Source: an uncultured Candidatus Saccharibacteria bacterium
GTDB lineage: Bacteria; Patescibacteriota; Minisyncoccia; Phycocordibacterales; Phycocordibacteraceae
Length of the DNA stretch: 64,000 nt
Direction: 5' to 3'
NCBI GenBank assembly: GCA_964634595.1
Contig: CAZWKU010000001.1
Coordinates: forward strand, 3,688 to 67,687
The position numbers and the translations under genes are program-made. The notes under the pieces were generated by a model. That model had not been told where the DNA came from. It did not search any database and saw only the letters and a list, made by a program, of their open reading frames with translations. The first letter of the stretch is position 1, and each line of letters opens with the position of its first letter. Below are positions 11,172-26,130 of the stretch, in pieces.

Positions 11172-11390
11172 GAAAAATATATTACCACGTGTCAGGGAGA
11201 GACATGGTCACGCATAAACACTGCTGTGTTTTGCGCGACCCCGGCTCGGCATCGCTTTGCGATATGCCTGCGCTATTCAAGTCTCTCACGCACCATGCGC
11301 AGGCATGGTGCTCCCCGGCACAGCGTTCACTTTGCTCACGTCTGTGCCGGGGGAGTTCGTCTTCGAAAGAACTTTATACAGACGCACTAG

Positions 11391-11473
11391 GACAGATACA
11401 GAATCGAAATGGTCAGAATTTTCCCGCGCGGCGGCTACCGCCGCGTAGAGGGGATGCGCCGTGCCAGAGACTT
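11391..11473. repeat. left arm of long inverted repeat (83-bp core, outer end GACAGATACAGAATCG)
   Basis: Reverse complement of 13478-13560 with 4 mismatches. Degenerate similarity continues inward to about 11555. Confidence 0.85.
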
Positions 11474-11644
11474 TAGTTCGAGAATACAAACCCAAACCCA
11501 AAGATTTTTTGAAGAAAAGAGAAGCGAATTTTTTGGCGGGGAGAGAGGGGAATACCTGAAGCCCGTAGTGTGCTTGCCCCACCCTCCGTGCGCGCACCAG
11601 CCCCTTCGCCGAGCTTTGGTTCTCGTCGAAGCTCCCTAAAATTT

Positions 11645-12181
11645 CTATCCTCTCTTTTTCCGACTGCCGTTACCTGCCTTTCTTTGGGCTTTCATTTGAG
11701 CGAGTATATTATCTCGTCGAATATCGGCGACATAATCAATTTCTGTTAAGGACGGGATACGGAAGCTCATCACCGTGCAATCATTGCGACTGGTGATCAC
11801 AAAGTCGCCGAGCGTGATGATGTCCATGCCGATAAGCACATCAATCGGGGAGTCGTCCCCCAAATTTCCTTCCGTTACCACTACATTCTGAACCATTACG
11901 TTGCTCGGCAGGGCGACGTTGACGAGATAGGTATCTTTGATGTCGCTACCATTTGCCGTGTTCACTTTCTTTTTGCCCGTGGGTTTCAAACCGAGATGGG
12001 CAACCACTTTAGGAGTGATGACCGAGCCGGTTGCGCCGGTATCCCAAATGCCCTTGAATGTCCCAATGACGAGATCTTTCTGATCTCGTATATCGCCTAA
12101 AAACGGCATGCAAATACCGACTTCACTTTGTAGAACGAGTAATTTCCCATTCTGGCCTCGTATTGTTAAGGCACTCGGCAT
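11645..12181 (-). CDS. retropepsin-like (clan AA) aspartic protease, module copy 1
   Basis: 178 aa. Active-site block KGIWDTGATGSVIT and a downstream hydrophobic-Gly motif (VLIGMDIITLGDFVI), typical of single-domain retropepsin-like proteases. Confidence 0.65.
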   Translation of the reverse strand: MPSALTIRGQNGKLLVLQSEVGICMPFLGDIRDQKDLVIGTFKGIWDTGATGSVITPKVVAHLGLKPTGKKKVNTANGSDIKDTYLVNVALPSNVMVQNVVVTEGNLGDDSPIDVLIGMDIITLGDFVITSRNDCTVMSFRIPSLTEIDYVADIRRDNILAQMKAQRKAGNGSRKKRG

Positions 12182-12190
12182 AGAAGGAAA

Positions 12191-12436
12191 TTAGATAGAC
12201 ACTCGAGAATAGAATGTCTGGGTGTAGTTTTCTGCTCCGGGCTCGACGCGCTGAATAAGGAATGTACCGAGCTCGTTATCTTTCTGCGCCCCCTCGTATG
12301 CCTCAATCTCTGAATCGTATGAGCCGATGACTTGCTGATTTTTTATCACCACAAATTTCCCTTCGTATTTCGCAACGAGTTCTTTTTGATGTGTGGTGTA
12401 GTATTCGAACTCCTTTGTGAGGGGGTCAGAAGCCAT
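12191..12436 (-). CDS. small partner protein of the aspartic-protease module (copy 1), hypothetical
   Basis: 81 aa, 10 nt upstream of and co-oriented with the protease. Homologous to 45809-46012 (KFVVIKNQQVIGSYD...TFLIQRVEPGAENY vs KWVALSKDNKKVIAYD...TFMKVPASDVY). Confidence 0.5.
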   Translation of the reverse strand: MASDPLTKEFEYYTTHQKELVAKYEGKFVVIKNQQVIGSYDSEIEAYEGAQKDNELGTFLIQRVEPGAENYTQTFYSRVSI

Positions 12437-12522
12437 ATACAGGTAACTATATCATAGTGGGTATTAGAGAACCACACGCGCCATAGTCGGGCTGTATACT
12501 GTCGTTATGCGATATTTTCTCT

Positions 12523-13480
12523 ATGCGCGCAAAAGCGCGACAAGGGCATTTCCCCGGCACTGCGCCATTTGGGTATTTGAATAATCCAGCGACTAAAACT
12601 ATCGTGGTTGATCGCAAAAAAGCTCCTATCGTTAAAGCCGCCTTCGAGCTCTACTCTAAAAACGATTCGACCTTAGACGACATCTCTCAATTTCTTTTTA
12701 ACGGCGGCGTCAAAAGCTATGGCGGCTTTGCTCTCCATAAAAACCGCATCAAGTTCGTTCTCGCCAATCCATTTTATTATGGGCAGTTTTTGTATGGTGG
12801 TGAATTGTATGAAGGAAAGCATTTGCCACTCATCACCAAGGCTTTGTTCGATAAAGTGCAAAAGGTGATGCTTGAGCGAAGCCATCCGCAAGTCTTTAAA
12901 GTACAACCTCAAGCATTTTGCGGCCTCATGTTTTGTGGAGAGTGCGGTTTTATGATTACCGCCGAGAAACAAAAAGGGCATGTGTACTATCGCTGTACCA
13001 AAAAAGCGGCGCTTCGCTGTTCACAACGCTATACCCGTGAAGAACAACTCGCCGCCGATTTTTCCGACCTCATTAGTATGTTTGTCCTGTCCGAGAAATG
13101 GGCACGAGATTTTGAGCATCGTATGAAAATTGATAGTCGCGAGTCCGGTCGGACGACTGCCGAGGCAGTCGCAAGGTTCAGGAGTGAGATAGTGGAGATA
13201 GGCCAGAAGCTCGATCGTCTTATGGATCTCTATATTTCGCAGGATATTGAGCGCGACTTGTATTTGGCAAAACGTCGCGCGCTTATGTCCGACAAGCGGA
13301 CGAAGGAGGAGCAAATCTTGAGTTTGGAGAAGAACAGCTCTGCATGGCTCGAACCGATGTCCAGGTGGATAAATGAGGCAGAAAATCTAGCCCAAATACA
13401 AAATGCCCCCTCTCTCCCCGCCAAAAAATCCGCCCTTCAAAAAATCTTCGGCTCGAACCTGAAACTCCAAAACCAAAAAG
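12523..13480 (+). pseudogene. large serine recombinase remnant with the N-terminal resolvase catalytic domain missing
   Basis: Begins inside the alpha-E linker (RAKARQGHFPGTAPFGY), then the recombinase domain, a zinc ribbon (CGECG...YYRC...C) and a coiled coil. Only 86 bp lie upstream before the divergent gene, so there is no room for a catalytic domain. The listed ORF reads on through the repeat and tRNA by chance. Confidence 0.85.
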
Positions 13481-13560
13481 TCTCTGGCACGGCGCATCCA
13501 CTCTACGCGGCGGTAGCCGCCGCGCGGGAAAATCCCGACCATCTCGATTCTGTATCTGTC
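13478..13560. repeat. right arm of long inverted repeat, abutting the 3' end of tRNA-Leu(CAA)
   Basis: 95% identical (79/83) to the reverse complement of 11391-11473. Contains the hairpins CGCGGCGG-tag-CCGCCGCG and CGGGA-aaa-TCCCG. Confidence 0.85.
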
Positions 13561-13561
13561 G

Positions 13562-13645
13562 TGGTGCCGGGGGAGAGACTTGAACTCTCAAGACTTGCGT
13601 CGGTGGGTTTTGAATCCACTGCGTTTACCATTTCGCCACCCCGGC
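13562..13645 (-). tRNA. tRNA-Leu (anticodon CAA), class II
   Basis: Minus-strand sequence GCCGGGGTGGCGAAATGGTAAACGCAGTGGATTCAAAACCCAC...GAGAGTTCAAGTCTCTCCCCCGGCACCA. Anticodon loop UUCAAAA, long variable arm, T-arm GAGAG/TTCAAGT/CTCTC. Confidence 0.8.
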
Positions 13646-13732
13646 AATATGCATATCCTACGCCAAAAACGGCTTTTTGAGAATTGTGTGAGCCGTGCTA
13701 CCTTGCACCCAGATCGAACAAGGAGAACTGTT

Positions 13733-25313: not shown

Positions 25314-25405
25314 GCCAGGGTGATGGAATGGTAGACATAGAGGACTTAAAATCCTCCGAGGTCCTTAAAAGCCTCATGTGAGTTCGAGTCTCACCCCTGG
25401 TACCA
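25314..25405 (+). tRNA. tRNA-Leu (anticodon TAA), class II, CCA encoded
   Basis: GCCAGGG acceptor, anticodon stem GAGGA/TCCTC with loop CUUAAAA, long variable arm, T-arm GTGAG/TTCGAGT/CTCAC, ACCA end. Confidence 0.8.
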
Positions 25406-25639: not shown

Positions 25640-26130
25640 GACCTACCATGAATTCCCCGATAGTATTAAACGGACCAATTTCTCTTCCCTCTTCTACTTC
25701 GCGTAGCGCAGTTTGAAGACCATGAGGTAGTTTTTTGGTACTTTTTACGCGCGGCATAACGCTCTGTCGCATTTGTGACTTTAGTGTGCGCACTTCCCGT
25801 TCAAGGGCAACAAGTCACTGTACGATCGCTGTATTACTCATGGGAATAATATACCATATGATGGAAAATATGGATTCTATGCGCCACTTCGTCTAAACAA
25901 CAGCTTCTTCCCATCCTTCTTTTTCGCGGGGGGTATGCCTGAAATGCATTTGGAGCGGCTGGGCGAGGGATTTTGTGTAAAAAATTAGCTGAAAACAGCC
26001 AATAAATATGGCCTATTTGAGAGACCGCCGCTAGCTTGACTTTTAGGCTCGGCCATGCTACAGTTGCAGACAAGGTCTGACATCGGGTTAGATCATGGCC
26101 CTAGCGAGCCAACTCACAGGAGAAATCGCG

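Follow-up and report, generated by a model that had tools for sequence, protein, structure and literature searches.

The 64,000-nt window analysed here (the whole stretch of DNA, from contig CAZWKU010000001.1 of an uncultured Candidatus Saccharibacteria bacterium, assembly GCA_964634595.1) carries at 12523–13680 of the forward strand an open reading frame (ORF) of 385 codons, corresponding to a large serine recombinase (LSR) from residue ~141 to its end. This ORF is very probably what is left of the inactivated LSR gene of a small integrative cassette (about 11384–13567), inserted at the 3′ end of a tRNA-Leu(caa) gene, that lost 401 nt through a deletion both internal and out of frame. We take it to be a pseudogene, most likely, and best annotated as such. 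The truncation, which seems to respect a domain boundary, would be an ordinary deletion between 13-nt repeats, and the context of the gene, a family of cassettes with frozen ends, holds more interest than the truncation itself.

By homology the gene is a large serine recombinase. Pfam searches matched PF07508 (recombinase) at aa 32–119 of the ORF (E 1.4e-12; 12616–12879) and PF13408 (zinc ribbon) at aa 132–182 (E 3.4e-9; 12916–13068), followed by a putative coiled coil (about 13075–13390) and a family-specific tail. The zinc-ribbon cysteines C133, C138, C141, C158 and C166 do not vary within the family alignment, and no gap interrupts the match of the window protein to the family across the zinc ribbon and coiled-coil region. 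PF00239 (resolvase), which a preliminary description of this stretch had proposed to search for together with the two other domains, gave no match in the ORF. A search of the protein database returned 837 homologues; among the matches listed, almost all are about 465–650 aa long (mostly about 500–550) and carry PF00239 together with PF07508 and PF13408. The best full-length homologue is 73% identical to the window protein, which opens with MRAKARQGHFPGTAPFGY and begins at family residue ~140, after the L of ...TARGL and with RAKARQGHFPG. In the closest relative (P0002) PF00239 spans residues 4–147, so that of the resolvase model the window retains just the final few residues, where helix E ends. 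The NCBIfam models CcrA, CcrB, CcrC and XisF likewise align only from model positions ~139–150 onwards, with scores far under their cut-offs. The preliminary description was thus right to place the start of the ORF at the end of helix αE and to report that the recombinase domain and zinc ribbon, with the coiled-coil region behind them, are kept. Its end at 13480 was set too early, since the ORF runs to 13680, and its last ~40 codons are antisense to the tRNA-Leu(caa) gene (13562–13645).

A functional LSR is defined by an N-terminal catalytic domain that carries the serine nucleophile and is in frame with the rest of the protein, and no such domain is in frame here. tblastn with three full-length relatives (P0002, P0006 and P0013) found no catalytic domain elsewhere in the 64-kb window. 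With the ORF as query, phmmer found no match among PDB sequences; the solved structure of the SPbeta LSR (SprA, 9dxh) was matched only with a family profile, over residues 31–462 (E 1.6e-17). In comparison to SprA, the family has a C-terminal tail of ~90 residues outside this alignment.

The beginning of the gene is still in place. With the same three relatives, tblastn matched residues 1–10 or 1–11 at 12507–12536 with 81–90% identity, in a frame differing from that of the called ORF. This segment of the forward strand holds the native start and codons 1–10, which read MRYFLYARKS. Nine of these ten residues match the family N-terminus, they lie at the right distance from a conserved −10 element, and YARKS carries the catalytic serine of the family, so that its codon is retained. 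After MRYFLYARKS the native frame reads ATRAFPRHCAIWVFE and then reaches a stop, giving a dead-end frame of 25 codons followed by TAA (12507–12584, forward strand; translation MRYFLYARKSATRAFPRHCAIWVFE). The 86 bp upstream of the called ORF, first taken as non-coding, contain the native ATG at 12507, and codons 1–10 overlap the start of the called ORF.

The size of the deletion follows from the spacing of two motifs. The codons for FLYARKS and GLRAKAR are 405 nt apart in all relatives in which both sites were located (19 of 19). In the window these motifs overlap, which fixes the loss at exactly 401 nt. R141, expected at 12927 (420 nt past the ATG), is found at 12526 (19 nt past it); the helix-E part of the gene is consequently offset from the native start by +1 frame. 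The earlier statement that the catalytic domain is absent and not frameshifted therefore holds in its first half, the domain having gone with the 401 nt, and fails in its second, codons 1–10 being out of frame with what follows. Reading the junction directly, we found that a stretch of 11–13 nt fits both peptide alignments: the 13-mer TGCGCGCAAAAGC (12524–12536, forward strand) gives (Y)ARKS in the native frame and (L)RAKA in the frame of helix E. Near-identical half-repeats occur in relatives, at the N-terminal site in L008 (TATGCGCGCAAAAGC) and L049 (TACGCGCGCAAAAGC), jointly written GCGCGCAAAAGC, and at the helix-E site in L032 and L057 (TTGCGAGCAAAAGCG).

Because the missing segment is flanked by short repeats, the gene might have been collapsed between two 13-nt repeats during assembly. 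A repeat of 13 nt is however far below the assembly k-mer length. Moreover, the same locus with the same junction is present in a second contig (L063), which comes from another sample and another assembler and differs from the window by 2 SNPs over 9158 nt, both elsewhere. The identical junction in an independently assembled contig shows that it is not an assembly artefact, an explanation that we regard as extremely unlikely.

A deletion end-point within a short direct repeat is a classic mark of slippage or of microhomology-mediated deletion, and a 13-nt direct repeat in the ancestor is plausible. We propose that an ancestral gene of about 500 aa carried two copies of the 13-nt sequence, the first in codons 6–10 (TAT GCG CGC AAA AGC, YARKS) and the second in codons 140–144 (YTG CGC GCA AAA GCG, LRAKA). 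Slippage or recombination between the two copies would have removed 401 nt, that is, the whole catalytic domain save its first 10 codons, and would have put the remainder of the gene out of frame by the same event. Transcription would still proceed from the conserved leaderless-type promoter, and translation from the AUG at 12507 would stop after 25 codons. The cassette, with its DUF5678 and aspartyl-protease cargo, could no longer excise itself and would be fixed beside the tRNA gene.

The 5′ region supports parts of this scheme. A −10-like hexamer, TATACT, lies at 12495–12500 on the forward strand, 6 nt before the native ATG, in leaderless geometry; a simple two-hexamer promoter scan did not call it. 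TATAAT-type hexamers are found 6–7 nt before the LSR ATG, without a Shine-Dalgarno sequence, in L001, L002, L028, L035, L046, L049, L052 and L057. This arrangement is the typical geometry of leaderless mRNAs, and it suggests that the LSR family is translated from such messages. In the window, transcription presumably still starts at about 12507, with a 5′-terminal AUG opening the 25-codon frame. The ATG at 12523 comes from native codons 6–7 (TAT GCG) taken in a shifted frame; no Shine-Dalgarno sequence precedes it, and it is located 16 nt into the presumed leaderless transcript. ORF 12523–13680 is probably translated to no useful extent.

The same region bears on the origin put forward in the preliminary description, a clean 5′ deletion or replacement in which the DUF5678/protease module inserted into the 5′ end of the recombinase gene or displaced it. 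The divergent protease operon is indeed only 70–86 bp from the ORF. However, the promoter-like hexamer, the start codon and codons 1–10 are intact between the two genes, and the missing DNA is internal to the LSR gene. A chance match at 12507–12536 is unlikely in view of the nine residues out of ten and of the correct distance to the −10 element. Intact relatives also have a divergent cargo gene directly upstream, with 3–45 bp between cargo start and LSR start, so that this proximity is the normal layout. From this comparison we read the module as cargo in the normal cassette slot and not as a displacer of the LSR 5′ end, and we reject a truncation by insertion or replacement as exceedingly improbable.

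Several observations weigh against an inactivating internal deletion, or at least against an old one. The ancestral pair of 13-mers is reconstructed rather than observed, no relative exceeding 73% identity: we found none closer than 73% aa identity in the protein database, or than 70% among GTDB species representatives, which do not include the window genome. The 385 remaining codons contain neither stop nor frameshift. At positions conserved in at least 90% of 69 full-length homologues, the remnant departs from the consensus at 6 of 113, and 17 of the 69 homologues have as many departures or more. An ORF that has stayed open and is no outlier at this threshold implies that the deletion is recent or that some constraint persists. 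Finally, the left and right terminal arms of the cassette differ at 7 of 39 positions in the window, inside the range of 2–13 of 39 seen in cassettes with an intact LSR; dating the deletion by arm mismatches was dropped for this reason. In favour of inactivation, at positions conserved in at least 95% of homologues the remnant departs at 5 of 83 (one being the artificial M1), the homologue median is 1 and only 2 of the 69 homologues reach 5, which we take as a weak hint of relaxed constraint.

An open ORF could also mean that a truncated protein is made from the AUG at 12523 and acts as a catalytically dead binder of attachment (att) sites, be it a decoy, a protein resembling a directionality factor, or a lock against related cassettes at tRNA-Leu. 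Besides the 385 open codons, nearly all invariant family residues are kept, both terminal arms, the putative binding targets, are still there, and the ORF is retained in two near-identical strains. However, these strains (the window and L063), with 2 SNPs in 9 kb, are too alike to be informative about selection on the remnant or its long-term retention. The ATG at 12523 is an accident of the junction frame, without a Shine-Dalgarno sequence and internal to a probable leaderless mRNA whose 5′ AUG opens another frame. An intact LSR paralogue was not found by tblastn within the 64-kb window, and deletions of every kind occur throughout the cassette family. We asked whether N-terminally truncated isoforms recur among the homologues and rejected this: P0082 and P0059, which lack the domain, turned out to be genes split in two, PF00239 being encoded by an ORF immediately before each. 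Another domain-less homologue, P0019, has a gap of 456 nt upstream. We regard a functional truncated protein as very unlikely.

Intact relatives are built alike: the left inverted end is followed by one to three cargo genes, encoded on the strand opposite to the LSR, then by the LSR gene itself, with a right inverted end within its 3′ end, and by a convergent tRNA gene. The inverted ends are ~165 bp each. In the window 11384–11474 pairs with 13477–13567 at 93% identity, and the similarity reaches on to 11550 and 13407. The outermost ~36 nt are element-specific, the left matching the right within one cassette. The left terminal arm (P′-type, 11384–11420) finishes with the core AGTGC and repeats, in inverted orientation, the right terminal arm (P-type, 13531–13567), whose core GGTGC end overlaps the 3′ end of tRNA-Leu(caa). 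This tRNA gene (13562–13645, reverse strand; called by ARAGORN, Rfam tRNA score 56.3 bits) is the integration target and is convergent with the LSR. The window terminal-arm sequence is CGATTCTGTATCTGTCGTGGTGC. Of the 39 positions compared, left and right arms share 32 in the window and 37 in L001 and L002, where they differ only beyond the GGTGC/GGTAC core. Arms vary by tRNA target class, those of Leu type and Phe type sharing 19–25 of 39 positions. Inverted P-type arms at both element ends are expected of the attL and attR sites of LSRs, and the terminal arms found here resemble the P and P′ half-sites of attR and attL. As LSR-type integrative elements, the cassettes would have been integrated by the site-specific chemistry of LSRs.

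The inner ~130 nt of the ends behave differently from the arms. The right inner block (13407–13530) belongs to the LSR 3′ coding sequence and is frozen as DNA. Pairwise comparisons give a mean identity of 96% for the right blocks of 12 cassettes and of 90% for 12 left blocks, against 80% for the neighbouring LSR coding DNA, and third-codon-position identity is 0.86–0.97 in the right block versus mostly 0.35–0.65 in the rest of the gene. The left inner block (11421–11550) repeats the LSR 3′ end in inverted orientation and is found family-wide, beyond the cargo in L001, L002 and L003 and in every complete metagenome cassette (L035, L039, L041 and L049). Left and right inner blocks of the same cassette are 69–78% identical. 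The left copies share left-specific indels whose lengths are not multiples of 3, and they are therefore non-coding.

These properties decide between two readings of the left end. tblastn matches the last ~60 residues of the LSR at 11561–11385 on the reverse strand, and the 91-nt inverted repeat at 93% identity could suggest two head-to-head LSR genes, with 11384–11561 a remnant of a second recombinase, or a segment inverted by the LSR, the rearrangement having come about through recombination between the two copies. Since every intact cassette that was examined has this inverted left copy, non-coding by its shared indels, a second LSR gene remnant at 11385–11561 was rejected in favour of a family-wide left inverted end. 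A Hin/Gin-like invertible segment was rejected as well: among 35 metagenome loci and 3 others, the tRNA faces a right-type block, and never a left-type one, at all 22 junctions with a tRNA called by ARAGORN, so that no flipped configuration was seen. We hold both the head-to-head and the invertible arrangement to be very unlikely and retain a single inactivated LSR gene in a cassette with inverted ends.

The frozen third positions of the right block suggest that the nucleic acid, DNA or RNA, is constrained as such. The inner blocks might serve as accessory recombination sites, encode a regulatory RNA or act as a pairing element. A conserved antisense ORF (MRRARDF...) is an unlikely cause of the frozen synonymous sites: it was rejected for the left copies, in which the frame changes between cassettes, the right copies being nearly identical to one another. 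Rfam searches of the window region returned only the tRNA and a sub-threshold 6S match (E 0.87), and those of the left regions of six relatives gave no match. On its tRNA-sense strand the right block is predicted to fold more stably than its shuffles (z −3.17); the left region does not stand out from them (z +0.37). The frozen ~130 nt are common to cassettes whose proteins are only 63–75% identical to that of the window (L001, L002, L003, L035, L039, L041 and L049). Both SNPs between the window (13468, 13476) and L063 (4946, 4954) lie 8 nt apart inside this otherwise ultra-conserved right block, and one of them changes Q316 to E.

A further conserved segment of the backbone (11551–11636, reverse strand) lies directly after the cargo stop codon. 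The boundary between cargo and backbone is sharp in all cassettes, reading ..AG and then GGAGCTTCG. A hairpin at 11604–11631 is predicted in the fold of this segment, with compensatory variants in L031, L050, L035 and the window. An ORF of 103 aa on the reverse strand (11286–11597), which is a called gene in L063 (2764–3075), crosses the left inverted end; because its frame is not conserved among the left copies of other cassettes, we judge this "hypothetical protein" likely to be a spurious call. Between the left end and the start of parB (11290–11380) we noted two strong hairpins, CCCCGGCACAG..CTGTGCCGGGG and CACCATGC..GCATGGTG.

The cargo of the window cassette consists of two genes on the reverse strand. 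Gene 1 (12191–12436), divergent from the LSR, encodes a DUF5678 protein of 81 aa (PF18929, E 2.9e-6) and sits at the cargo position of intact relatives. Gene 2 (11645–12181) encodes a clan AA aspartyl protease of 178 aa (PF13650, E 7e-11; PADLOC candidate PDC-M08B, E 8.6e-7). Other cassettes carry a Drt2 reverse transcriptase (L003 and L039, E 1.7e-107), a PD-T7-1/5-like protein (L035), a DUF3800 protein matching PDC-M04A (L002), HTH-SocA/Panacea with a partner (L049), an XRE protein with an ImmA/IrrE-type peptidase (L041) or an AlbA_2 protein (L057). The same Drt2-type reverse transcriptase is found at different tRNA genes, Phe for L003 (401–1738) and Lys for L039 (4240–5577), implying an exchange of cargo or backbone between cassettes of different target specificity.

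An exact-pattern scan located the cassette block in 35 metagenome contigs, among them several of the Hainich groundwater ("Hain") assemblies. We checked the idea of a phage vector and found no viral contig with the block. Cassettes in these contigs measure 2.2–3.4 kb and carry a single LSR. At all 22 junctions with a called tRNA, the right-type block adjoins the tRNA 3′ end; targets are Phe-gaa, Leu-taa, Leu-caa, Lys-ctt, Glu-ctc and Arg-tcg. Just as the LSR 3′ end overlaps tRNA-Leu(caa) in the window, the edge of the LSR gene abuts the target at the 22 junctions of relatives. Full-text literature searches returned no published description of this LSR cassette family, which is apparently undescribed.

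Decay is frequent in the family and takes several forms. Besides the split genes P0082 and P0059, L038 (about 90–240) fuses ~16 N-terminal codons to the last ~60 codons, L043 (7477–7647) keeps only the last 57 codons, and L037 (245–380) is a scar of ~150 nt in which the right block is joined to the distal flank. Beside tRNA-Leu(taa), L042 (1301–2790) contains a nested array in which a second type of LSR is cut to residues 1–53 between its own inverted ends of ~95 nt, and in which a foldback element with perfect inverted repeats of 80 nt is inserted exactly at the GGTGC core. In L002 (2108–4685) a Trypsin_2 cassette without recombinase, bounded by perfect inverted repeats of 157 nt that start at the GGTAC core, abuts the LSR cassette; it may be non-autonomous and mobilised in trans. 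This adjoining cassette indicates that "L-ext", a sequence shared beyond the left arm, is probably the inverted end of neighbouring cassettes accreted at the same tRNA and not part of the LSR cassette. About 30 nt of a flank resembling L-ext are kept in the window beyond the left arm.

Intact members of the family share with known LSRs (the phage integrases phiC31, Bxb1, A118 and SPbeta SprA; the transposases TnpX and TndX; the Ccr recombinases of SCC) the order resolvase, recombinase domain, and zinc ribbon with an embedded coiled coil, whereas the window copy lacks the catalytic domain. The ends of the cassettes set the family apart: they are inverted and ~165 bp long, compared to half-sites of ~25 bp in known systems, and the right end lies in the 3′ coding region of the recombinase itself, with ~130 nt frozen at synonymous sites. 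To our knowledge, long inverted ends overlapping the coding sequence of the recombinase are not a described feature of LSRs. SCCmec-type cassettes (CcrAB/CcrC) also move cargo by means of LSRs, to the 3′ end of rlmH, and form composite or tandem arrays at the same site. The cassettes described here resemble them in that a conserved housekeeping gene receives LSR-borne cargo at its 3′ end, and in the arrays, comparable to those of L002 and L042. They differ by their tRNA 3′-end target, by their small size (2–3.5 kb) with a single recombinase, and by long inverted ends instead of short direct and inverted repeats.

Tycheposons (Hackl et al., bioRxiv 10.1101/2020.12.28.424599) are similarly small and inserted at tRNA genes, with variable cargo, tandem accretion and degenerate integrase remnants beside the tRNA. 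In tycheposons, 910 of 937 elements use tyrosine recombinases and the remainder an LSR, and direct partial-tRNA repeats flank the elements (bioRxiv 10.1101/2020.12.28.424599). In contrast, the cassettes of the present family use an LSR, have long inverted ends and lack the direct repeat of part of the tRNA; the genomes that carry them are of Patescibacteria type and come from groundwater metagenomes. As for the window gene itself, it belongs with integrase pseudogenes and short-repeat deletions. It resembles the integrase pseudogenes that anchor decayed genomic islands, where an island becomes fixed with its cargo once the recombinase is lost, and nothing essential differs.

The locus reveals a compact LSR family with tRNA 3′-end targets, defence cargo swapped at a sharp boundary, tandem pile-up at the same core, and ends constrained at the DNA level. 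We tentatively suggest, as a possibility we would not yet favour, that this undescribed family of 2–3.5 kb cassettes shuttles single defence genes to tRNA 3′ ends in Patescibacteria-type genomes, and that its ~165-bp ends, with their ~130 nt of frozen recombinase coding sequence, function as accessory recombination sites or as regulatory RNA/DNA elements. Less likely still, the window remnant, though dead in catalysis, would go on binding these ends and so lock the defence cassette in place. We know of no LSR that needs functional ends of such length. If the ends are needed for recombination or its control, they would constitute a new requirement for large serine recombinases. In that case the family would also supply natural att sites whose targets are simple and predictable, and would shed light on how genome-reduced Patescibacteria acquire and fix defence genes.

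Elsewhere, the window contains a tRNA-Cys/tRNA-Leu(taa) pair without an insert. In L002, L028, L055 and L058, which are different genomes, this pair is occupied, the insert starting at the CCA end; the tRNA-Leu(taa) gene of the window (25314–25405) would be a free target of L002-type cassettes. A small ORF (MFYVYLLKSLRDGNAYIGSTDNLRRRLAEHQKG...) follows this tRNA gene and has, by eye only, the look of a GIY-YIG nuclease. About 500 nt downstream of tRNA-Leu(taa), at 25917–25978, a stretch of 60 nt is 77–79% identical to the distal part of the L-ext repeat known from beside cassettes elsewhere.

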